From the NCBI GenBank assembly GCA_013203145.1, contig JABMOV010000105.1, forward strand, positions 1 to 62,366: 62,366 bases of DNA. The letters run 5' to 3'. The notes under the pieces were generated by a model. It worked only from the letters and a program-made list of their open reading frames with translations. It was not told the DNA's origin and did no database searches. The DNA comes from Fidelibacterota bacterium. GTDB taxonomy: Bacteria > Fidelibacterota > Marinisomatia > Marinisomatales > JABMOV01. The position numbers and the translations under genes were made by a program. This document shows, in pieces, positions 3,841 through 59,202 of the stretch; the stretch's first letter is position 1; the number at the start of each line of letters is the position of its first letter.

Positions 3841-4398
3841 ATGGAATTTCTACTCCCTGTCACCATTGATCGAATTCGATTTCATCCACCTAGCCGTAGT
3901 TACGCTGTTGTTGTGAAAGATGTGAATAGTGAATTAAAACTACCGATCATGATTGGTACGTATGAAGCTCAATCTATAGCAATGGCACTTGAAAAAGTTA
4001 AAGCATCACGCCCAATGACCCATGATTTACTGACTTCCTTAATCGGAGAATTTGATTCTCATCTTGTTTCGATTCATATATCTGATTTAATCGAAGGTGT
4101 TTTTTATGCCAGATTAGTTATTGAAAATAACAGTGATGGGGTTCAGCGAAATATTGATTGTCGTCCAAGTGATGCAATTGCTATTGCTGTTCGCATGGAT
4201 GCCCCAATCAAGGTGGCTAAACATGTAATGGATGAAGTGGGATATCTGGAAGAATCTGAAGTTGAAATGATGATAGACGATAATCCAACTGAGACTGAGT
4301 CAATTAGCGAATTAGAAGTGCAGTTAAATGATGCCGTCTTGCAAGAGGATTATGAAAAAGCTGCAATTATTCGTGACAGAATAAAAGAATTGCCCTAA
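3841..4398 (+). CDS. bifunctional nuclease family protein (DUF151-like) with C-terminal UVR-type helix
   Basis: 185 aa. The N-terminal region resembles the BFN/DUF151 family ('RPMTHDL', 'DCRPSDAIAIAVR'). The C-terminal 'LQEDYEKAAIIRDRIKEL' is UvrB/C-motif-like. Confidence 0.7.
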   Translation: MEFLLPVTIDRIRFHPPSRSYAVVVKDVNSELKLPIMIGTYEAQSIAMALEKVKASRPMTHDLLTSLIGEFDSHLVSIHISDLIEGVFYARLVIENNSDGVQRNIDCRPSDAIAIAVRMDAPIKVAKHVMDEVGYLEESEVEMMIDDNPTETESISELEVQLNDAVLQEDYEKAAIIRDRIKELP

Positions 4399-5123
4399 AA
4401 ATTTCCCTGTAACGTATCCAGTGCATATTGAGCCGCTGATTGTTCCGCGGTTTTTTTATTTGATCCCAATCCCGGGGGATATGTCTCTTCACCAATTTTC
4501 ACATGAACCTCAAACATTTTCTGATGTTCAGGACCTGTGACACTGGTGATTTGGAAGCGTGGGTTTCCAATGGAGAGAGAATGGCAATATTCAATTAATC
4601 GACCTTTATAATTGGTGGATTTCCAAGCTTCTTCACGATGACGCCAGACCGTATCTATGATAAAGATGCGACATGGATCAATTCCATTATCAAGAAATAT
4701 TGCGCCTACAAGAGCCTCGTAGCAGTTTGCATTTTGACGGTCTGCAATTTTATCTATCTCTAAATTGACTGTTGGGTCAATTGTTAAAAAATCGAGCAGA
4801 TTTAATAAGCTGCCCATATTTGCTAAAAATGATTTTTGAACCAGAGCAGCACGTTTTTGAGTCAATAATCCTTCATCACCTGCAGGATATTCTTTCATGA
4901 GCTCTTTGCTGATAACAATATCGATGACGGCGTCACCAAGGAACTCTAGGCGTTCATAATTTTTTCTTGGAGTTGGATCTATAGAACGATGTGTAAATGC
5001 TTGATTAAGAATGGTAGGATCAAGAAAACGATACCCAATTATTGATTCAAGTTTTTTGAATTCATGTTTTGGGCGAAAAAGAAAATTTAGGAATCTCAAA
5101 CGTCGTGCCAGCGCCTGATACAA
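4395..5123 (-). CDS. rnc: ribonuclease III
   Basis: RNase III signature 'ERLEFLGDAV' plus a C-terminal dsRBD ('KKTAEQSAAQYAL'). The annotated start overlaps fabF by 28 nt, so the true start may be internal. Confidence 0.9.
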   Translation of the reverse strand: MYQALARRLRFLNFLFRPKHEFKKLESIIGYRFLDPTILNQAFTHRSIDPTPRKNYERLEFLGDAVIDIVISKELMKEYPAGDEGLLTQKRAALVQKSFLANMGSLLNLLDFLTIDPTVNLEIDKIADRQNANCYEALVGAIFLDNGIDPCRIFIIDTVWRHREEAWKSTNYKGRLIEYCHSLSIGNPRFQITSVTGPEHQKMFEVHVKIGEETYPPGLGSNKKTAEQSAAQYALDTLQGNF

Positions 5124-6340
5124 ATCACTCCATTATGTCCACCAAACCCAAAAGTATTTGAAAGAGCTGCTTCAATTGGGAATGACTCAGCCTTATTGGG
5201 AATATAATTTAAATCACAATCGGGATCTGGTGTTGTTTGGTTGATTGTAGGTGGTGCGATATTATTTTCAATGGCTTTAACAACAGCAATAGCTTCAATA
5301 GCACCTGTGGCACCTAATAAATGACCTGTCATAGATTTTGTTGAACTAACTTTAAGATTATTATAGGCATGATCACCAAAAACCTCACGAATTGCAATCG
5401 TTTCATTGCGATCATTAATAGAAGTAGAGGTTCCATGAGCATTGATATAATCGATGTCTTCAGATGCTAATCCTGCGTCCTTTATTGCCAAACGCATCGC
5501 CCGAATGGCTCCATCTGGGGCAGGGGCAGTAATATGATAAGCATCGTCAGTAGAAGCATAGCCAGCTAATTCAGCAAGGATGGTTGCTCCACGATTTTTG
5601 GCATGTTCTAGTGTTTCTAATACTAATAAACCAGCACCTTCACCCAATACAAATCCAGAACGTGTTAGATCAAATGGTCTGCTGACTGTAACGGGATCAT
5701 CTTCACTTTTAGATAATGCCTTCATATTAGCAAAACCAGATACTGTTAGGGGGGTCACACTGGCTTCAGCTCCACCACTAATCATGACATCTGCATCGCC
5801 GTAATGTAATAAACGAAGAGCGACGCCAATGGCATCAGTGGCAGATGAACATGCTGTAATTATGGTTTGATTTGGACCTTTAAATCCGAATTTTATCGAA
5901 AGATGAGCGGCTCCTATATTTGCAATCATTTTAGGCACAAATAGAGGAGATACCCTTTTAGGACCACGATCCATGTAGACAGAATGTTGTTCCTCTAGGG
6001 TTTGGATTCCACCTACTCCTGTGCCGAGCGTCACACCCACACGTTCCAAATCGATGGAATCTAAATCTAACCCGGAATGATTCACCGCCTCTTGAGCCGC
6101 TATTAATCCAAGGATCGAGAAACGATCCAGCCTACGTACTTCTCGAGGATCCAAGTAGTCTATAGGATTGAAAATAGATAGTTCACCAGCAATTTTTACC
6201 GAATGGTCTTCTGTATCATAACTGGTAATCGGACCGATCCCACTTTTCCCAGCAAGAAGTGCGTTCCAATATTGCTCTACATTATTTCCGTTTGGTGCGA
6301 GGGCACCCATTCCCGTAATAACTACTCGACGATGTTTCAT
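5096..6340 (-). CDS. fabF: beta-ketoacyl-ACP synthase II
   Basis: 414 aa. Catalytic Cys context 'ITACSSATDA', then 'NAHGTST' and 'TGHLLGA'. Confidence 0.95.
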   Translation of the reverse strand: MKHRRVVITGMGALAPNGNNVEQYWNALLAGKSGIGPITSYDTEDHSVKIAGELSIFNPIDYLDPREVRRLDRFSILGLIAAQEAVNHSGLDLDSIDLERVGVTLGTGVGGIQTLEEQHSVYMDRGPKRVSPLFVPKMIANIGAAHLSIKFGFKGPNQTIITACSSATDAIGVALRLLHYGDADVMISGGAEASVTPLTVSGFANMKALSKSEDDPVTVSRPFDLTRSGFVLGEGAGLLVLETLEHAKNRGATILAELAGYASTDDAYHITAPAPDGAIRAMRLAIKDAGLASEDIDYINAHGTSTSINDRNETIAIREVFGDHAYNNLKVSSTKSMTGHLLGATGAIEAIAVVKAIENNIAPPTINQTTPDPDCDLNYIPNKAESFPIEAALSNTFGFGGHNGVICIRRWHDV

Positions 6341-6352
6341 AAGAATTTTCTG

Positions 6353-6583
6353 CTATACTTTGGTTTCGATATAAGTTACCGCAGCTCCAACTGTTGTCAT
6401 ATTTTCAGCATCTTCATCTGGTATTTCAATGCCAAATTCTTCTTCTAATTCCATGATAAGTTCTACAGTATCTAAAGAATCTGCACCAAGATCATCAACG
6501 AATGATGCTTCCATGGTTATTTTATCTTCTTCGACACCAAGTTTATCAACGATTACTTCTTTTACTTTATCATAAGTAGACAT
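6353..6583 (-). CDS. acpP: acyl carrier protein
   Basis: 76 aa. Phosphopantetheine attachment motif '[12 protein letters not shown]'. Confidence 0.95.
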
Positions 6584-6596
6584 ACTCTCTCCTTGT

Positions 6597-7343
6597 TTAT
6601 ATCATTGTCATTCCGCCGTCGACCGTAAATGTTTGTCCTGTTATATAACCGGCCTCGTCGGATGCTAAAAAGTTTACCATTGCTGCAATATCTGCAGCCT
6701 TACCAATGCGACCCAAAGGTATTTGACTAAGCAAAGTCTCTTTTGCTTTATCGGTAATAGCATTGGTCATTTCAGTTTCAATGTATCCTGGTGCAACACA
6801 GTTTACTGTGATTCCACGAGATGCATATTCTTTTGCTATCGATTTTGTAAATCCAATTAAACCCGCTTTTGAAGCAGCATAATTGGATTGACCGGCGTTT
6901 CCTGTTAATCCAACGACAGAGGAGATATTGATGATCCTTCCACTGCGTTGTTTCATCATGGGACGTGTGACAGCTTTTGTCCCGTTAAAAGCGCCTTTAA
7001 GATTAATATTTAGGACCATATCCCAATCATCTTCTGACATTCTCATAAGTAAAGTATCTCGAGTAATTCCTGCATTGTTCACAAGAATGTCAATATGACC
7101 ATATTGCTCCATTGTAAATTTTACTAGATTTGAAAAAGATTCGGCATTGGAAATATCCGCTGCGAAATAATGAGCATTTCCATTGTTTGCGTTAATGGAG
7201 TCAGCAACGACTTTTATATCGGCTTCAGTGCGACTTGCACAAACAACTGTGGCACCAACCTTTGCTAATTGTTCTGCGATTCCTTGCCCGATTCCACGGG
7301 AAGCTCCGGTAACAATAGCAACTTTATCTGTTAAACTATACAT
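6597..7343 (-). CDS. fabG: 3-oxoacyl-ACP reductase
   Basis: SDR motifs 'TGASRGIG', 'NNAG' and 'YAASKAG'. Lies within the fab cluster. Confidence 0.93.
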
Positions 7344-50792: not shown

Positions 50793-52028
50793 TTAAACTT
50801 TAAAACTTTGTCGTTCTCGAGGAGCAATACATTTGGTTTTCGAATTCATTTCCGCCAAAAGTTTTTGAGCGGTTTTCAATTTCATATCTATATCATCATC
50901 ATTTTGATCTGGATCGTGATGAATAATGTGTAATTCTTTTACGCCCGCCTGATGAGCCAGCTTCACAACTTGTGACACAGAGGAATGTCCCCAAGTACTC
51001 TTTTGCTTATATTCCTCGTCGGTATAGGTAGTATCGGTAATTAAAATATCTGCGGAACTTAAAAAAGCGGTTAGTTTTTCCCAGTAATCCAAATTATAGT
51101 TTCGTGAATTTTCAGGAAATAACTCATTATCGGTTATGTAACAGATAGATCGGTTCTTGTATTCTAATCGATACCCAAGGCAAGTACCGGGATGAGAAAG
51201 TAACATCGTTTTTAGCTTGATATTATTTATCTCGATTTCCTCTTCCTTGAGATTTCGAAAATATGTTCTGGAGGCAAACTCTTTCATCGTGATGGGAAAA
51301 TAGACCCCATCCATTTGAGCTGAAATCAATTCACGCATAGTAATATCACCGTGAGAAGCACCCAATATCTCGAATTCATTTCCTGGGATGTATAAGGGAA
51401 CAAAGAATGGCAGGGCGTTGATATGATCCCAGTGGGGATGAGAAATGAGGATTTTTGCATGAAGTTTTGGACCCTGTGTGCTCAATAAGTGATTTGACAA
51501 CTGTTTGATTCCTGAGCCAGCGTCGAGAATAAAGAGATTGTTTTTTGGGAATTGGATTGATACACAGCAGGTATTGCCACCATACTTAAGTGATTCTTTC
51601 CCAGGAACCGGCAGTGTCCCACGTACACCCCAATACGTTAATTCGATTTTGTCTTCAATTATATCTTCTAAGTGTTTGATGAATACTTCATTGTCTAATG
51701 GTTTAGTTAAATACCCATCGGCACCTAATTCCAGGGCACGTTGTTGATCATGCTCATACGTTTTGCCCGAAAAAATAACAATTTTAAGATTTTCCAGGTT
51801 TGGTTCCTGCCGCAATAACCGGCACATATCTAATCCATCTATTCCAGGCATCATTAGATCGAGAATTACTACATCCGGCTTAGTCCTCTTTATTTCCACA
51901 ATAGCCTCAGTGCTGGAAGAGCTGGTAATTACCTTTGCCTTGTATCCCTCCAGTAATGATTTCAGTATTAACAATGTACCGGGATCGTCATCGACTATAT
52001 GAATAATAATATTTTTTAATATGGACAT
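50793..52028 (-). CDS. response-regulator receiver domain fused to MBL-fold metallo-hydrolase
   Basis: N-terminal REC domain ('IVDDD', phospho-acceptor context 'VILDLMMPG', 'FSGK'). The C-terminal beta-lactamase fold has 'SHPHWDH'. Confidence 0.8.
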   Translation of the reverse strand: MSILKNIIIHIVDDDPGTLLILKSLLEGYKAKVITSSSSTEAIVEIKRTKPDVVILDLMMPGIDGLDMCRLLRQEPNLENLKIVIFSGKTYEHDQQRALELGADGYLTKPLDNEVFIKHLEDIIEDKIELTYWGVRGTLPVPGKESLKYGGNTCCVSIQFPKNNLFILDAGSGIKQLSNHLLSTQGPKLHAKILISHPHWDHINALPFFVPLYIPGNEFEILGASHGDITMRELISAQMDGVYFPITMKEFASRTYFRNLKEEEIEINNIKLKTMLLSHPGTCLGYRLEYKNRSICYITDNELFPENSRNYNLDYWEKLTAFLSSADILITDTTYTDEEYKQKSTWGHSSVSQVVKLAHQAGVKELHIIHHDPDQNDDDIDMKLKTAQKLLAEMNSKTKCIAPRERQSFKV

Positions 52029-52250: not shown

Positions 52251-55001
52251 ATGACAACATTCTGTAATTATTACTATCAGATTAGAAGATTTATTAACGA
52301 ATTTCAAAAATTAAAGAGGTGCCCCTTGCGAAATGCAATTATTCTTTTGATTATATCTTCGCTTTTTGCTAATGAGTCGACTTTTAATCCTGAAGATTTT
52401 AGGTTCCGAGATGTTTATGCTGTTCGCTTGGAGAAACCACTAGTGTTAGATGGTCTTCTGTCGGAAGACATCTATTCTGGACCATTCGTTTCAGATTTTA
52501 TTCAATATGCTCCTAACAATGGAAATCGAGCCACAGAGAAAACTGATATGTGGATTGGTTATGATGACGAAGCTCTTTATGTTGGTGCTCGTATGTGGGA
52601 TGCCAGTCCTGATTCAATTGTAACTCGTATTGGGCGCCGGGATGATCATTTTAATTCCGATTTATTTGAAGTGATTATCGATTCATATAATGATAAGCGC
52701 ACCGGTTTTTCATTCCAAATTAATCCGTCTGGAGCCATCCGTGACGAAACATATTATAATGATAGTTGGACCGACCTAAGCTGGGATGGCATCTGGGAAG
52801 GGAAGACCAGTATCGATGATAAAGGATGGACGGCCGAACTGCGTATACCATATTCTCAACTTCGGTTTGACGAACAGGAAGAATATACCTGGGGCATTTT
52901 CCCCACACGGTATATACAGCGTCGTGGCGAATGGGATTATTTTATGTACAAACCGCTCGAGGAAAGTGGAGCCATGTCGAAAGCGGCAACGTTACACGGC
53001 ATCCGTGGTATTAAACCACCAAGAAGACTTTCTGCTATGCCATATTTTGCTTCGAGCACGAGCAATCTACCATCGCAGGAGAATAATGCATTTACGGGCG
53101 GTCGTCGTTCGAATATAGGGATTGGAACTGATATCAGAATGGGCATTGGCGGAAACCTGACCCTTGATGCAACGATAAATCCTGATTTCGGCCAGGTTGA
53201 AGTTGATCCTTCCAGTATCAATCTATCAGCGTACGAAACGTACTACGCGGAGAAAAGACCGTTTTTTGTTGAGGGACGTTCAATATTTGATTTTGGTAGC
53301 AGTGGTCCAACCAATAACTGGGGTTTTAACTGGAGTAGTCCAAGTTTTTTTTATAGTCGGAGAATTGGTAGATCGCCACAAGGTTACATTGGGGTGCCTT
53401 CTGATTCACTGAACCAGCCAGATGCAACACGCATCCTTGGAGCTGTAAAGGTTAGTGGTAAATTGAAAGGTGACTGGTCGGTTGGTGTATTAAGTGCCCT
53501 AACCAGTCGCGAGTTTGGTGAATACTATCTTGATGGCAAAAAGGATGAGCAACAAATAGAACCACTTACTTCATATAATGTGCTTCGTGCGCAAAAGGAA
53601 ATAGCCGATGGTCGTCGTGGTATTGGCTTTATTGGATCGTTTACAAATCGAAGTTTCAACGGTTCCAACCTAACTGGGATTGATGGTATTTATACTCTAT
53701 CAGACAATCTGGCCGAACAAGCGTTAACCTTCGGCGTCGATGGTTGGAATTTCTTTGGGGAAGATCGAGATTGGGCACTTGGTGCCTGGGCCGGTATGTC
53801 ACATGTAAGCGGCACTCAGAATCGCATCGCTAGTCTACAGAAAAACTCAAGTCACTATTTTCAAAGGCCTGATGCTGATCATCTTGACTTTGATCCAACT
53901 CTCACTGAACTAAATGGGTTTGCAGGACGACTTTCACTCAACAAAGAGCAGGGAAATATCCAGTTTAACACGGCATTGGGAGCGATATCGCCAGGCTTTG
54001 ATAGCAATGATCTTGGACGTACGTCCGTTACTGATAGGATAAATCAGCATACAGTAATAGGCTATCGCTGGACTGAGCCCGGCAAGACTATCCGATCTGC
54101 AAGGGTGGATTTTGCTTACCAGACAAATCATAACTTCTCAGGTGTGAAAAATGGTGTACAGATTATTTCTATGGGTTATGCCAGCTTCCTCAATTATTGG
54201 GGTGTTAATTATTTTTACAATTGGATGCCTGAAGTATTGAGCACAACGGCTCTTCGTGGGGGTCCCGCAGTCATTAGACCAACTATTCATAGCCTGGATT
54301 TAGGTGTAAACAGCGATGGCCGAAAGCAAATTTCCGGCGATGCATATGTCAGCTTCTCGACAGATGCTGGTGGTGGCCATAGTGAGTTTTTTGAATTATC
54401 AGCGGACATGAATTTTGGCGACCAGTTTAATGTGAGTATTGGTTCATATATATCAAATAATTTAGAGATGACTCAATATATCCATAGAGAGCCAGATTCT
54501 TTAGCCACAGCAATGTTTGGGAATCGTTATATAGTAGGCCAAATGGAGCAGCACACCGTTGGTTCGAATATTCGAATTAGTTACACATTTACTCCCAAAC
54601 TATCTTTACAGGCTTATATACAACCATATCTATCCGTTGGGAAGTACAGCCACTTCAAAGAATATGCCGCACCTGAAACGTACTCATTCATCAATTATGG
54701 TGACGATGCATTCACAGTGACGGAGGATGGCAATTATGTGATTGATCCACAAGGTGACCCGGATACAGACGATCAGTTTACAATTTATAACCCTGATTTT
54801 AACTCGAAATCGCTGGTGGGTACCGCCGTATTGCGATGGGAATTCAGCCCTGGTTCTACAGCATTTCTGGTTTGGACACGTAATGGCTCAAACTATGATC
54901 GCCCAGGAGTCTACGATTTTGCTCGTGATATGGGAGATGTGCTTTCTGCCCAGGCAGATGACTTTATTGCTCTTAAAGTAACCTATCTACTTGGGAAATA
55001 G
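52251..55001 (+). CDS. DUF5916-like outer-membrane protein with N-terminal carbohydrate-binding (CBM9-like) region
   Basis: 916 aa. It contains 'NPDFGQVEVDP' and a long beta-rich C-terminal region. A likelier start is the TTG at 52326 (AAGAGG SD 6 nt upstream), giving the signal peptide MRNAIILLIISSLFA. The family call is from memory. Confidence 0.6.
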   Translation: MTTFCNYYYQIRRFINEFQKLKRCPLRNAIILLIISSLFANESTFNPEDFRFRDVYAVRLEKPLVLDGLLSEDIYSGPFVSDFIQYAPNNGNRATEKTDMWIGYDDEALYVGARMWDASPDSIVTRIGRRDDHFNSDLFEVIIDSYNDKRTGFSFQINPSGAIRDETYYNDSWTDLSWDGIWEGKTSIDDKGWTAELRIPYSQLRFDEQEEYTWGIFPTRYIQRRGEWDYFMYKPLEESGAMSKAATLHGIRGIKPPRRLSAMPYFASSTSNLPSQENNAFTGGRRSNIGIGTDIRMGIGGNLTLDATINPDFGQVEVDPSSINLSAYETYYAEKRPFFVEGRSIFDFGSSGPTNNWGFNWSSPSFFYSRRIGRSPQGYIGVPSDSLNQPDATRILGAVKVSGKLKGDWSVGVLSALTSREFGEYYLDGKKDEQQIEPLTSYNVLRAQKEIADGRRGIGFIGSFTNRSFNGSNLTGIDGIYTLSDNLAEQALTFGVDGWNFFGEDRDWALGAWAGMSHVSGTQNRIASLQKNSSHYFQRPDADHLDFDPTLTELNGFAGRLSLNKEQGNIQFNTALGAISPGFDSNDLGRTSVTDRINQHTVIGYRWTEPGKTIRSARVDFAYQTNHNFSGVKNGVQIISMGYASFLNYWGVNYFYNWMPEVLSTTALRGGPAVIRPTIHSLDLGVNSDGRKQISGDAYVSFSTDAGGGHSEFFELSADMNFGDQFNVSIGSYISNNLEMTQYIHREPDSLATAMFGNRYIVGQMEQHTVGSNIRISYTFTPKLSLQAYIQPYLSVGKYSHFKEYAAPETYSFINYGDDAFTVTEDGNYVIDPQGDPDTDDQFTIYNPDFNSKSLVGTAVLRWEFSPGSTAFLVWTRNGSNYDRPGVYDFARDMGDVLSAQADDFIALKVTYLLGK

Positions 55002-55036
55002 TAACCGATTGTAAAACAAATCTGATTCACGATTAG

Positions 55037-55105
55037 TTCACCATCCCAATAACCCAATTTTGATTAAGCGGTGGTGCGATCCACCGCTTGACGAATGAAT
55101 TGTAA
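55037..55105 (+). pseudogene. decayed 3'-terminal fragment of a paralog/allele of the GME-superfamily gene 49494..50381
   Basis: Ungapped alignment with 50313..50381 matches 56 of 69 nt by my own count. It translates FTIPITQF*LSGGAIHRLTNEL* against ITIPTTQFRLSGGAIHCLTNEL*, showing an in-frame stop and catalytic Cys to Arg. Confidence 0.8.
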
Positions 55106-55201
55106 GTGGTTTTATCAACCGGAACACTTTACAGTTGAAACATTTCTTATAACTAAATAGCATAATGTTATTACGATTTCAGTTACTATTAAAACTCATA
55201 T

Positions 55202-55221
55202 AAATACGTAGTAGAGCGTAT
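55202..55221 (+). repeat. 20-nt exact direct repeat, copy 2 (AAATACGTAGTAGAGCGTAT)
   Basis: Identical to 39841..39860. It is preceded by the -10-like TATAAA and lies 90 nt upstream of the 55312 cassette. Confidence 0.9.
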
Positions 55222-55311
55222 TGTATTATTCAATACCACGTTACTATACTTATTACTTATTTTTAGAATATACTCAATGCGTTTTCACAACTAAACGAAA
55301 CAGGAGATATT

Positions 55312-56109
55312 TTGGGGCATACTCGATTAGGATATATACCAAAATCAAAAAAATTCAAAGCGCTTTTGGAAAACTATTTTTCTAACGGGGCATTTGACAA
55401 TTCTGAGATTGAAAAAGCAATAATCACAATTGCTGGAGCTACACTTGAAGCTGCAAAAGAAGGAATGAGAATCGCTAAATCTGATAAAGGTGTACAATTT
55501 ATATTTAGTCTTTTAACTCAAATTGTCTCTTCGTCTTCAAATGATAATTGGTATGACGAGATGAAAAATTTGGGAATTAATATCAATAATAAATCTCAAT
55601 ATTTTGATTTATCCTGTGAATCTCAAAAATTAGTTGATCAATATTTATTCCATAATAACCTTGGTTCTGATCTAAGCGAAATGGCTCAATCTGCAATGGG
55701 AGATGCATTGTCGTCTGTTGTGAAAAGTGAGACAGTCAATCTATTTAAATCTGACAATGACCTTCAGAGCAGATTTAATAAAAATACAGAACAAGAAAAT
55801 TTCGTTTGTATCAGCAAATCATTTTTCAGTGGATTTTTAAATAGATATCTGAATTTTTTTCTAAGCCGGATATCAGTTGATACTAATCGTGGGAAAATGA
55901 TTAGAAACCTACAAGACAATAGGGATTTCAATAAATCGCTAAAGATTCACTGCGATCAAACTTCTTACATAGTTGAGGATTTTAGTAGAGGATGGTATGG
56001 AAAAACTAGGTATAAGAATAAAATCGATAAGCCCGACACCACAGGATTTGTTGCCACAGCTTTAGATAAGCTTAAAAACGAGATGATTATGCAGGGTAAG
56101 GGAAAATAG
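55312..56109 (+). CDS. hypothetical protein, first gene of the QueC-like/SIR2-like cassette (possible QatB-position partner)
   Basis: 265 aa. TTG start with an AGGAGA SD at 55303-55308. Its TAG stop overlaps the GTG start of the next gene (TAGTG). No motif recognised. Confidence 0.65.
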   Translation: MGHTRLGYIPKSKKFKALLENYFSNGAFDNSEIEKAIITIAGATLEAAKEGMRIAKSDKGVQFIFSLLTQIVSSSSNDNWYDEMKNLGININNKSQYFDLSCESQKLVDQYLFHNNLGSDLSEMAQSAMGDALSSVVKSETVNLFKSDNDLQSRFNKNTEQENFVCISKSFFSGFLNRYLNFFLSRISVDTNRGKMIRNLQDNRDFNKSLKIHCDQTSYIVEDFSRGWYGKTRYKNKIDKPDTTGFVATALDKLKNEMIMQGKGK

Positions 56110-57980
56110 TGATCCAGCCCAGGATATATCTCTGTAATGGAATTTGCGAGAAGGAATATCCTTTATTACCTGACAAATACAAACCTGTCGAATTAAATTC
56201 GAATATTAGGTTCCCCAACGTAAATGTATTTATAGAACTTTATAATATAACTAACAGGTTAAATAATAATATTTCTCCAAGAATGCGTGATTTATTAGAG
56301 ATAGCGTCTTATATATATTGTGGGGATATTGCGACAAGTAGAGGATCTCACTGGACAAATAAGAGTTCAATTGAATCTTGGCAGCGTGAACTTAAATATG
56401 TTATTCCAGTTCGTGATTATGATTTTTGGACTCAATCTTCAGTAATATTCCAATTAAGAGAAACTTTAAATTTCTTAACAAATGATATTTATGATTTTGA
56501 GTTTCGCAAATTAAATATTTCTGATCATGATCAGATGTATATCAAATTATCAGAAGATAAAAAAATAAATGATTATATCTTTGACAAAGTAGTATTATTC
56601 TCAGGAGGACTTGATTCTTTAGCTGGAGCAATTGAATCTTTACACAATGATGAAAAAATTATACTGGTCAGTCATAGATCAAATGCAGTATTAGATAGTC
56701 GTCAAAGGAAATTATTTTTCGAGATTCAACGCAAGTACAAGAAAAATGTATATCATATTCCGGTATGGGTAAATAAGGCCAAAGGGCTAAGCAATGATTA
56801 TACGCAAAGAGCTAGATCATTTCTCTTTTCTTCACTTGGAGCAATAGTTGCCCACTCACTTTCGATTAATAATATTAGATTTTACGAAAATGGAACGGTT
56901 TCAATCAATTTACCTGTAGCAGAAGAGGTCGTTAGAGCGCGGGCATCAAGAACCACCCATCCAAAAACATTATTTTACTTCCAAAAATTTTTCAGTTTGG
57001 TAACAGAGAAAAAATTAAATGTTGAAAATCCATTTATATACTGCACAAAAACTGACGTTGTCACCAAACTTAAAAAATATAATGCTGAACATTTAATACC
57101 GTTGTCTTGTTCATGCGCGCATCCGTTTGAAAAAACAAAAACTCAATGGCATTGCGGTATATGTAGTCAATGTATTGATAGGAGGGTGGCAATACTATCT
57201 TCAGGATTAAGTGAGTATGATTCCGATAACGATTACATAACTGATGTCTTTCTAGGTAAGCGTAAAATAGGACCTCAAAGAAACATGGCATTGGGATATA
57301 TAAAATTAGGATTAGATTTATATGATCTTGATGAATCAGTCTTATATGAAAAATTCAGTCTTGAAATATCTAGGGCGATAGAAAATTCTGATAATCGTAG
57401 TGAGGCTGCAGGATCAATAATTAGTCTTTTAAAAAGACATGGGGAAACCGTACGGAATGTATTTCGAGAACAGTATAGGTCTAATTCTGATAAAATTATT
57501 GATGGGGAAATTGAACCAAGTTCAATATTGGGATTAGTAATTGGACAAAAACACAATGAGAAATCATGGATGAAATTTGCTAATAGAATTTTTGAAATAT
57601 TAAACGATGGAATTCCAATTATTTGCCAAACTGAAAAACCTGATATTGAACCTAGATTGCAAGAAATGTGTGATGGATTACTAAGTTCAAATGGGGAAAT
57701 ATTAGATCGGGAATATCCTTTTGTTCAATGGGCATCTCGATTAACAAAACCTGATTGGCAGTCTGAAGAATATTCACTATTTGTTGAACTGAAATACATT
57801 AGGGAAAAAAGCGATATCAGTAGGATTACGCGGAGTATTTCGAGTGATATTACTACATATGGTGATAATGGTAGAAAAACTTTATTCGTGGTATATGATC
57901 CATATTATTTACTTATTAGCCGTGACAAGTTCGTTTCAGATATTGAAAAACATGATGGCCAGCTAGCAAAGATAATTTAG
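56109..57980 (+). CDS. QueC-like PP-loop ATPase with long N- and C-terminal extensions
   Basis: 623 aa. PP-loop 'VVLFSGGLDS' (residues 161-170, nt 56589-56618). QueC-type Cys cluster 'SCSCAH...HCGICSQCIDRR' (C336-x12-C349-x2-C352-x2-C355). C-terminal 'KPDW...VELKY' (residues 547-563). Confidence 0.7.
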   Translation: MIQPRIYLCNGICEKEYPLLPDKYKPVELNSNIRFPNVNVFIELYNITNRLNNNISPRMRDLLEIASYIYCGDIATSRGSHWTNKSSIESWQRELKYVIPVRDYDFWTQSSVIFQLRETLNFLTNDIYDFEFRKLNISDHDQMYIKLSEDKKINDYIFDKVVLFSGGLDSLAGAIESLHNDEKIILVSHRSNAVLDSRQRKLFFEIQRKYKKNVYHIPVWVNKAKGLSNDYTQRARSFLFSSLGAIVAHSLSINNIRFYENGTVSINLPVAEEVVRARASRTTHPKTLFYFQKFFSLVTEKKLNVENPFIYCTKTDVVTKLKKYNAEHLIPLSCSCAHPFEKTKTQWHCGICSQCIDRRVAILSSGLSEYDSDNDYITDVFLGKRKIGPQRNMALGYIKLGLDLYDLDESVLYEKFSLEISRAIENSDNRSEAAGSIISLLKRHGETVRNVFREQYRSNSDKIIDGEIEPSSILGLVIGQKHNEKSWMKFANRIFEILNDGIPIICQTEKPDIEPRLQEMCDGLLSSNGEILDREYPFVQWASRLTKPDWQSEEYSLFVELKYIREKSDISRITRSISSDITTYGDNGRKTLFVVYDPYYLLISRDKFVSDIEKHDGQLAKII

Positions 57981-58074
57981 TCGCAATTATTCGAAGAATT
58001 TTTGTACATCAAGAATTATAATTTTATTTACGTTTATTACTATACTTGTTTCAAATGAATCTCTTGGAGGTATC

Positions 58075-59055
58075 ATGATAAAGGAAAATACTGTGTTCAT
58101 TTTAGGAGCAGGGGCAAGTAAAGCCTTTGGCTATCCTACCGGAAGGGAGCTTACAAACTATATTAAAACAAAATTCATTGGGGACTTTGAAAGGAGTTTT
58201 GGTAAAGTTACTCAACCGGGTTCAGCACAGGAGGAAAAAATTGATGAAGCAAAAATATTTGTTGATGCCTTTATACAAAGTGGCGGCGGAACTTCAATAG
58301 ATTATTTTCTCTCGAGAGCCAGAAATCATGGCCAAAGACGAATAATTCAAAACTATGGGCGACTTGCTATTGCATTTAATATTATACAACGTGAAATAGT
58401 TCACAGTAAAAACCAGATTGATATTGAAAATGATAATGATGATAATTGGCTTGATTATTTTTATGAACATTATTTTCTTTCCGGTCAATTAGAAATAGAT
58501 CCCGAAGAAATATCTCAAGTGCCGATTAGTATTATTACATTCAATTATGATAGATCTCTTGAGTATTTACTTTATAGTCGTCTAAAGCAAATTGTAAATA
58601 ATAATGATGAGGATATAGTAATGAAAATCCTTAATAAAATTCCAATTATACATATTCATGGTATTATTGCTCATCTTCCCTGGCAAGTGATGACAAAGGA
58701 AGTGAAAAATCGAATTCAATATGGAGCATTGAAATTGCATACTGCAGATATATTAAAGCAGAACATTAAAATTGTACATGAAAAATCAAATACTGATATT
58801 ATTAGGGAAGCGAAATCTAAAATTAAGAGGGCTGATAAAATCTACTTTTTAGGGTTTGGATATGATACAAACAATCTGGAGAAAATTGGAATCCCCAAAT
58901 TGTTACATGAAGGACAACAAATATATGGTACTGGTCGCACCACTAATCGAATTCTTCATGAGACATCACAATCTCTCCTAAACAATGGACTTGAGGAAGA
59001 AGATATCATACTTGAAAACAAAGGCATTACACAGCTTCTTACTGATTACCCCTAA
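58075..59055 (+). CDS. SIR2-like (SIR2_2-type) domain protein, putative NADase effector
   Basis: 326 aa with a GGAGG SD. Ordered motifs are 'VFILGAGASKAFGYPTGRELT' (residues 7-27), 'ITFNYDRSLEYLL' (154-166), 'IIHIHG' (191-196) and 'IYFLGFGYDTNNL'. Confidence 0.6.
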   Translation: MIKENTVFILGAGASKAFGYPTGRELTNYIKTKFIGDFERSFGKVTQPGSAQEEKIDEAKIFVDAFIQSGGGTSIDYFLSRARNHGQRRIIQNYGRLAIAFNIIQREIVHSKNQIDIENDNDDNWLDYFYEHYFLSGQLEIDPEEISQVPISIITFNYDRSLEYLLYSRLKQIVNNNDEDIVMKILNKIPIIHIHGIIAHLPWQVMTKEVKNRIQYGALKLHTADILKQNIKIVHEKSNTDIIREAKSKIKRADKIYFLGFGYDTNNLEKIGIPKLLHEGQQIYGTGRTTNRILHETSQSLLNNGLEEEDIILENKGITQLLTDYP

Positions 59056-59202
59056 ATAACGGATTAGGCCGCCAATCATGATGACATACCCAACCACCGA
59101 AGAATAGCCCACTTTTTTCGTTTTTTATAATCTCATTTAAACTGATCACCAATAAGTTTGGAACTTTTACATTATGATAACATACATAAATCTTTATTAA
59201 TG

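Follow-up and report, generated by a model that had tools for sequence, protein, structure and literature searches.

The stretch of DNA analyzed here (hereinafter the window) is the 62,366-nucleotide contig JABMOV010000105.1, positions 1 to 62,366 of the forward strand, from the assembly GCA_013203145.1 of a Fidelibacterota bacterium. It encodes two overlapping genes that together look like a compact variant of the Qat defense system. The downstream gene encodes a predicted fusion of a QatC-like enzyme with a C-terminal domain of the restriction endonuclease (REase) type, and the gene immediately upstream, denoted here the partner gene, encodes a predicted helical protein with a distinctive N-terminus. 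Residue conservation in the fusion protein was scored over 116 homologs, to which all statements on invariant or conserved residues of this protein refer. The features of the pair are the following.

55302..55306, plus strand: AGGAG ribosome-binding site, 5 nt ahead of the TTG start of the partner gene
55312..56109, plus strand: partner gene, QatB-like in position and design; TTG start, 265-residue product with the N-terminus MGHTRLGYIPKSKKF and an all-helical body
56109..57980, plus strand: QatC-REase fusion gene; GTG start, 623-residue product, closed by a stop codon
56109..56588, plus strand: QatC-type N-terminal extension, residues 1-160, with D61 and D73-x4-R78...W91-x-R93
56589..57203, plus strand: PP-loop (pyrophosphate-binding loop) ATP pyrophosphatase core of the QueC family, residues 161-365 (Pfam QueC, E 6e-8)
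56601..56618, plus strand: the pyrophosphate-binding loop SGGLDS itself, residues 165-170, invariant
56946..56963, plus strand: substrate-pocket loop S280-R-T282-T-H-P285, assigned by alignment to solved QatC, invariant
57114..57173, plus strand: Zn-binding cluster C336...C349-G-x-C352-x-x-C355, followed by R358 and R359, invariant and aligned with the Zn site of solved QatC
57204..57638, plus strand: helical region, residues 366-510, with helices at 389-508 in the AlphaFold2 (AF2) model, predicted local distance difference test (pLDDT) score 85
57639..57977, plus strand: REase_DpnII-MboI, a PD-(D/E)xK domain, residues 511-623 (Pfam PF18742)
57753..57794, plus strand: putative catalytic D549...E560-x-K562, at least 97% conserved

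The initial annotation, made from the nucleotide sequence alone, had described the second gene as a 623-residue open reading frame (ORF) at 56109-57980 of the plus strand with a GTG start and a stop codon, and translation reproduces this frame along with every motif at the residues then given: RMRDLLEIASYIYCGDIATSRG at residues 58-79, SGGLDS, RARSFLFSSLGA at 234-245, ENPFIYCTKTDV at 306-317, cysteines at 334, 336, 349, 352 and 355, TKPDWQSEEYSLFVELKYI at 546-564, which holds D549, E560 and K562, and TLFVVYDP at 591-598. Two details are to be amended. The codons of the D549-K562 motif occupy nt 57753-57794, the position 57750 reported previously being the start of P548, and of the C334/C336 pair, C336 is conserved in the family and C334 is not. 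More than 120 full-length homologs of about 622 residues exist (44-50% identity, E 1e-177 to 0), so that the frame belongs to a conserved gene and did not arise by chance. Public databases list these homologs as "7-cyano-7-deazaguanine synthase", as "PD-(D/E)XK nuclease domain-containing protein" or as "hypothetical"; they open with MIxPR... and typically overlap the upstream gene by 4 nt, which backs the GTG start in the window, where the GTG and the stop codon of the partner gene have one base in common. The public gene calls for the same contig are shorter. The fusion protein is given there as 565 residues from Met59, with 56109-56282 left off, and the partner as 247 residues from Leu19 (TTG), with 55312-55365 left off and the conserved MGHTRLGYIPKSKKFKAL tail lost. 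Comparison with homologs supports the longer forms of both genes, 623 and 265 residues, respectively.

By profile and sequence alignment, residues ~50-398 of the fusion protein are clearly recognizable as a QatC homolog. The PADLOC QatC model matches with E 4e-61, and hhalign against six canonical plasmid QatCs places residues 50-398 on QatC 50-395 (probability 100%, E 4e-49), with the last ~55 residues of QatC outside the alignment. Among the sequences of solved QatC structures, 9vlk_A and 9zee_B are retrieved by phmmer with E 4.5e-30 and 2e-28. The alignment with 9vlk begins at D61, and some canonical QatCs match from residue 5 in tblastn. Residues 1-160 are therefore the known N-terminal extension of QatC, carrying D61 and the D..R..WxR motif, and the additional sensing module that had been suggested at this place can be dropped. 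The N-terminal extension of QatC is needed for defense in Pseudomonas aeruginosa (PMC13279940). The alignment with QatC that had been advised at the outset thus shows a common N-terminal extension, and both the PP-loop and the cysteine cluster, whose failure to align with QueC catalytic residues had been named in advance as grounds for rejection, align with solved QatC.

Like the QatC of qatABCD, for which solved QatB-QatC complexes are available (9Y01/9Y02, 9VLK, 9ZEE), the fusion protein keeps the QatC-specific motifs, as these have been defined previously (PMC13329287). D61 is the counterpart of the catalytic D63 of QatC and is invariant, as are D73-x4-R78...W91-x-R93, SGGLDS, R234-x-R236-xxx-F (RARSFLF at 234-240 in the window protein), E260-x-G262 (E260-N-G262), H284-P285, P308-x4-T313-K314 and C336...C349-G-x-C352-xx-C355..R358-R359. 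The counterparts of the two SGGLDS serines, S156 and S161 of QatC, are essential for defense, and T278 and T280 of P. aeruginosa QatC, which have a role in the substrate pocket (PMC13279940), correspond to S280 and T282. The differences in this part are Ser280 instead of Thr278 in the pocket, 12 instead of 7 residues between R and W, and 12 instead of 19 between the cysteine and CGxC. The protein is, as judged from its motifs, not a QueC of the queuosine pathway. Canonical QueC was considered and rejected: none of YxQxHxxE, VPxRN and YPDC is present, and with 24.2 bits the protein stays below the TIGR00364 cut-off of 150.3. The fusion protein is homologous to QatC, yet it is only ~30% identical to it, falls below the NCBIfam equivalog cut-off and does not belong to a qatABCD operon, there being no qatA or qatD beside it.

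Unlike QatC, the fusion protein is 170-200 residues longer, with a larger helical region and the fused PD-(D/E)xK domain. The initial annotation had left residues ~395-623 unassigned; residues ~400-623 are indeed additional to QatC, with ~400-510 being helical and only ~511-623 constituting the nuclease domain. The helical region at 366-510 matches by position the QatB-binding C-terminal extension of QatC and is shared, up to about residue 485, with a set of sister proteins described below, whereas the alignment with canonical QatC ends at about residue 398. The nuclease domain is well supported at the level of sequence profiles. PF18742 (cut-off 27 bits) scores 27.4 bits with the whole fusion protein and 29.2 bits with the fragment, and it is matched by 24 of 24 homolog fragments (best E 1.6e-13), the match spanning the catalytic half of the profile, positions 63-140 of 150. 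The PADLOC "Helical-REase" models also match, if weakly (E 0.001-0.03). E514, Q518 and D522, upstream of D549, are conserved as well. In the AF2 model of residues 366-623, built from a 24-sequence alignment (mean pLDDT 85), the stretch 514-622 starts with a helix and a low-confidence segment, continues with two adjacent strands and ends with helix, strand, helix and strand; D549 begins the first strand, E560-x-K562 lies in the second, and E514, Q518 and D522 are in the preceding helix. As modeled, this is the alpha-beta-beta-alpha-beta-alpha-beta arrangement of PD-(D/E)xK domains. The top Foldseek match in the PDB is the nuclease domain of MUS81 (probability 0.96, ~75 columns, root mean square deviation (rmsd) ~4 Å, E 0.09), and in BFVD the C-terminal model resembles proteins of the PD-(D/E)XK, ERCC4 and endonuclease I types, weakly and over short regions. 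The nuclease fold, initially proposed as a weak idea from one short motif, is strengthened by the profile match at threshold, the conserved triad and the model, with the structural matches remaining weak; the more general suggestion of a defense-type QueC paralog with a nuclease-like module attached to an adenylating core is supported by both the QatC matches and PF18742.

With REase_DpnII-MboI proteins, the domain shares the conserved D...ExK and the profile match to the catalytic half. It differs in being the C-terminal module of a multidomain enzyme instead of a stand-alone type II enzyme with a cognate methyltransferase. Assignment to a type II restriction-modification system of the DpnII/MboI type is not supported: no methyltransferase gene is found in the low-GC islet of the window that harbors the pair (see below), and none is conserved beside the homologs.

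The partner gene, which the initial annotation had overlooked, is the key to this system. In 73 of 78 related loci, drawn from species-representative genomes, the QatC-like gene is immediately preceded on its strand by a gene for a partner homolog, usually with a 4-nt overlap; three of the remaining five loci are broken by a contig end. In two loci (L012, 7671-9776, and L050, 2366-4033), the QatC-like ORF runs 50-110 codons further upstream and no separate partner ORF was detected; these extended ORFs could be fusions of the partner to QatC or could result from a frameshift or from misassembly. The N-terminus of the partner is near-invariant, MGHxRLGx(I/L)P(K/R)(T/S)xxW. Among 136 full-length representatives, 122 start with [MV]GH, and within these 122 the conservation is as follows: G2 122, H3 122, R5 103, L6 102, G7 107, P10 113, T/S12 114 and W15 115. 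A full-length REase-type pair in the metagenome-assembled genome (MAG) of an uncultured archaeon (L088, 7198-9848) has a partner that opens with MGHERVSSLP, off the bacterial consensus. When 1.84 billion representative sequences were searched with the partner-family profile, 1,492 clusters at 50% identity were retrieved with an E-value no higher than 0.001, and 1,042 with one no higher than 1e-10.

The resemblance of the partner to QatB extends to its position, the overlap with a QueC-family gene, the size, the all-helical body and the flexible Met-Gly tail with downstream Pro and Trp; as in the case of QatC, the gene upstream of the fusion gene overlaps it and encodes a helical protein, here of ~265 residues, with a Met-Gly N-terminal tail. 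In the AF2 model of the partner (pLDDT 76, predicted template modeling (TM) score 0.79), the fold is made up entirely of helices, 11 in number, and the initial 12-29 residues are disordered or modeled with low confidence. In a Foldseek search of the PDB, the only global superpositions are with the QatB chains 9Y02_A and 9Y01_A (probability 0.98 and 0.97; TM score 0.40-0.51, 216-227 columns, rmsd ~6 Å), all other matches having TM scores of 0.25 or less. The tails themselves differ, the MGHxRLG of the partner with its invariant His3 standing against MGTS in QatB; His3 is absent from QatB and from the CD-NTases of CBASS (cyclic oligonucleotide-based anti-phage signaling systems).

The conserved unit comprises these two genes. 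Hidden Markov models (HMMs) derived from six plasmid qatABCD loci detect neither QatA nor QatD within 8 kb in the window or in the 78 related loci, and the QatB HMM finds no match in these loci either. No third gene is conserved: no two loci share the gene that follows the pair, all of these genes being singletons, so that the unit does not extend beyond the partner and the fusion gene. The two-gene unit is widespread, across many phyla, with hosts among Acidobacteriota, Cyanobacteria, Planctomycetota, Chloroflexota, Ignavibacteria, Proteobacteria and other phyla in addition to the single archaeal MAG. A distant full-length pair (32% identity) is encoded at 4156-6800 of the Leptospira noguchii plasmid p1_LIP1709037 (L005), beside an IS982 transposase; its partner opens with MGHERLG and both genes are annotated as hypothetical.

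In 47 of the 78 loci, proteins with the region equivalent to residues 1-~485 and the same MGH partner carry other C-terminal modules (e.g., L051, 7887-10604; L038, 8001-9950; L069, 1418-3472, all within the sister series L038-L091). Of these sister proteins, 42 have tails that group into seven clusters unrelated to one another. One cluster corresponds to a calcineurin-like metallophosphatase (E 4e-13), and for the remaining six Pfam gives no confident match. The modules are exchanged at the point where the nuclease domain begins in the model, and such swapping of C-terminal modules is typical of effector modules. On viral and prophage contigs of IMG/VR, 158 relatives of the QatC-like core were found; among the 80 listed (L097-L176), none has the full REase domain, with 79 matching to about residue 490 and one (L139) to residue 550.

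The surroundings of the pair in the window include two further features.

55000..59200, no strand: low-GC islet with three genes, 27-35% GC (flanks, 40-46%)
58075..59055, plus strand: SIR2-like gene, 326 residues (PADLOC SIR2, E 8e-9; Pfam SIR2_2 below threshold)

The three genes of the islet have a GC content of 32-33%, compared with 39% over the contig and 41-43% for the genes on either side, which fits horizontal acquisition. The SIR2-like gene is a stand-alone gene 94 nt downstream of the fusion gene, and the other neighbors of the fusion gene besides the partner are a DUF5916 gene and TetR/efflux genes. At related loci, defense genes are often adjacent, including BrxC/BrxL of BREX, type III and type I restriction-modification and HEPN/RES genes; a methyltransferase-REase fusion and a DUF1156/DUF499 pair beside conjugative-transfer genes are also found, and L096 has a TIR-domain gene in the position equivalent to that of the SIR2-like gene. 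Direct or inverted repeats flanking the islet, as marks of a mobile element, amount to short, weak matches, and the sites returned by a promoter and terminator scan are no commoner than in shuffled sequence. A GC-rich hairpin, GCGGTGG-TGCGAT-CCACCGC, lies at 55069-55088 just past the DUF5916 gene, close to where the islet begins on its upstream side; lacking a T-run, it is not among the sites of the terminator scan. The minus-strand gene at 50793-52028 encodes a 411-residue protein with a response-regulator receiver domain and a metallo-beta-lactamase-fold domain and is unrelated to the QatC-REase pair.

The properties of canonical Qat suggest how the two proteins might work together. QatB opens with a conserved MGTS, and a Pro and a Trp shortly downstream are conserved as well; after removal of Met1, Gly2 occupies the active site of QatC, the G2D substitution abolishes defense, the QatB tail also binds the nuclease QatD, and an NDG-modified N-terminal QatB peptide has been detected by one group (PMC13279940, PMC13376578, PMC13639016). 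QatBC alone protects against some phages (PMC13279940). Four structure papers of 2026 conclude that QatC probably modifies the QatB N-terminus, with the role of the modified protein not settled in any of them. From the domain identities, the conserved residues, the gene pairing and the genomic context, we infer a modification chemistry, a nuclease activity, a coupling between the two and a function in defense along the following lines. The partner would shed Met1 and expose Gly2, and its short flexible tail (GHxRLG..P..W) would enter the PP-loop active site of the QatC-like domain. This domain would use ATP to adenylate the carboxylate of its substrate, either 7-carboxy-7-deazaguanine (CDG) or the substrate of QatC itself, and the activated substrate would be moved onto the Gly2 amine of the partner. 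The C-terminal PD-(D/E)xK domain would be the DNA-cutting effector, fused in cis in place of QatD, the separate TatD nuclease of qatABCD, and its activity would be coupled to the state of the partner, with the QatA ATPase not required. On balance, we favor the reading that the partner and the fusion gene make up a self-contained two-gene Qat-like anti-phage module in which a nuclease domain replaces QatD.

Two known systems are the closest points of reference for this reading besides QatBC. Like QatD, which binds the QatB tail in qatABCD, the fused domain would be a metal-dependent nuclease tied to a QatBC core, and it is proposed here as the functional counterpart of QatD; QatD, however, is a TIM-barrel TatD protein on a separate polypeptide, and its equivalence with a fused PD-(D/E)xK domain is one of presumed function. 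In type IV CBASS, the QueC-family enzyme Cap9 acts on the Gly2 amine of an adjacently encoded protein, as proposed here for the pair. Cap9 differs in being a minimal enzyme of ~185 residues with a canonical QueC pocket, which has a CD-NTase as its substrate and needs Cap10 and a cyclic-nucleotide effector. Identification of the fusion protein as Cap9 of type IV CBASS was considered and rejected, given its 623 residues and the absence of a CD-NTase, a Cap10 transglycosylase or a cyclic-nucleotide effector among the neighbors in the window.

Several observations weigh against the two-gene Qat-like module. The score of the fusion protein with the NCBIfam QatC equivalog NF041925, 216.1 bits, falls short of the cut-off of 280. 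No similarity between the partner and QatB was detected by NCBIfam models, phmmer against the PDB or profile searches, the hhalign probability being 0.5% for a thin and 13% for a deep profile, and the Foldseek E-values of the QatB superpositions are 0.2-0.45; given this lack of significant sequence similarity and these E-values, the partner is best described as QatB-like by design and as no more than a possible remote homolog of QatB. Its tail, of ~12-29 residues, is shorter than the 30-90 residues found in QatB. For the nuclease domain, no structure match in the PDB or BFVD has an E-value at or below 0.001. The conserved catalytic triad is no proof of an effector role, since the domain might instead act as a DNA-binding sensor. 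Finally, even the reaction of canonical QatC has not been reconstituted in vitro in any of the four structure papers.

A broader interpretation, which we put forward tentatively, is that the pair represents a large, unrecognized Qat-type branch in which a small-molecule mark, placed by the QueC-family enzyme on the Gly-His N-terminus of the partner, might directly gate the cis-fused effector, with QatB/QatC serving as a general sensor-activator chassis for a PD-(D/E)xK nuclease, a metallophosphatase and at least five modules that Pfam does not match with confidence. The size of the partner family, roughly 1,500 clusters at 50% identity, bears on this interpretation. The invariant His3 could reflect conjugation of a different substrate or, speculatively, binding of a metal by the Gly-His N-terminus, which would then act in the nuclease site.

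Alternatively, the pair could be a two-gene defense module in which the REase-fold domain is mainly a sensor of phage DNA that switches on the QatC domain, with the modified partner as the effector. The defense conferred by QatBC without the nuclease against some phages (PMC13279940) fits such an arrangement, as does the lack of a recognizable catalytic domain in most of the sister tails. It is nevertheless unlikely, because inactive sensor derivatives usually lose their catalytic residues, whereas E514, D549, E560 and K562 are each at least 97% conserved, and because one group of sister proteins has an enzymatic module, the metallophosphatase, in the same position.

The location of the SIR2-like gene, on the same strand as the pair and in the same islet, raises the question of a three-gene system in the genome of the window, with the SIR2-like protein as an effector that depletes nicotinamide adenine dinucleotide (NAD) under the control of the pair. 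The SIR2 and TIR families are both NAD-degrading, and the TIR-domain gene in the same place in L096 is in line with this notion. A system of this kind is, however, quite unlikely: there is no SIR2 homolog next to any of the 78 related loci, where the downstream genes are unrelated singletons, in 12 of the 38 REase-type loci the pair is not closely followed by a gene of its own strand, and defense islands often hold SIR2 and TIR genes that act independently.

It appears highly unlikely that the pair is a toxin-antitoxin or addiction module that stabilizes mobile elements, with the nuclease fusion as a toxin restrained by the partner. The tight overlap of the genes is what would be expected of such a module, and so is their occurrence on plasmids or near transfer genes (L005, L094), that of the sister forms on viral or prophage contigs, and the low-GC islet. 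What this explanation does not account for is the invariant PP-loop enzyme and the invariant Gly2-His3 tail that mirrors a known protein substrate of the QueC family; moreover, toxin-antitoxin and abortive-infection roles are compatible with defense. A Dpd-like or restriction-modification-like function, in which DNA or tRNA receives a 7-deazaguanine derivative made by the QueC-like domain and unmodified DNA is cut by the REase, accords with the supply of DNA 7-deazaguanine modification systems by QueC-family enzymes (PMC13329287) and with the naming of PF18742 after type II restriction enzymes, but is extremely improbable considering the missing QueC motifs and low TIGR00364 score (24 against 150), the failure of canonical QatC to complement queC (PMC13329287) and the lack of a transglycosylase or methyltransferase gene adjacent in the window or conserved at related loci.

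In one survey, qatABCD accounts for ~98% of the detected qat loci (PMC13434339), and in a survey of the QueC family, about one third of the QatC cluster is found beside qatA or qatD, the remainder not being described (PMC13329287). No description of a QatC/QueC-nuclease fusion or of an MGH partner was found in the open-access literature searched, although subscription journals or supplements may hold one. Defense-system finders that demand qatA and qatD will miss the two-gene branch, and the public gene calls remove the N-terminal glycine motif that is central to the proposed mechanism. As a natural unit of two genes without QatA and QatD, the pair offers a simpler handle on how qatABCD stops phages, both on the QatC reaction and on the role of the modified QatB. 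The covalent link between QatC and a recognizable nuclease points to DNA cleavage as one output, and the exchange of C-terminal modules suggests a QatB/QatC pair that serves as a reusable control unit instead of belonging to one fixed system.

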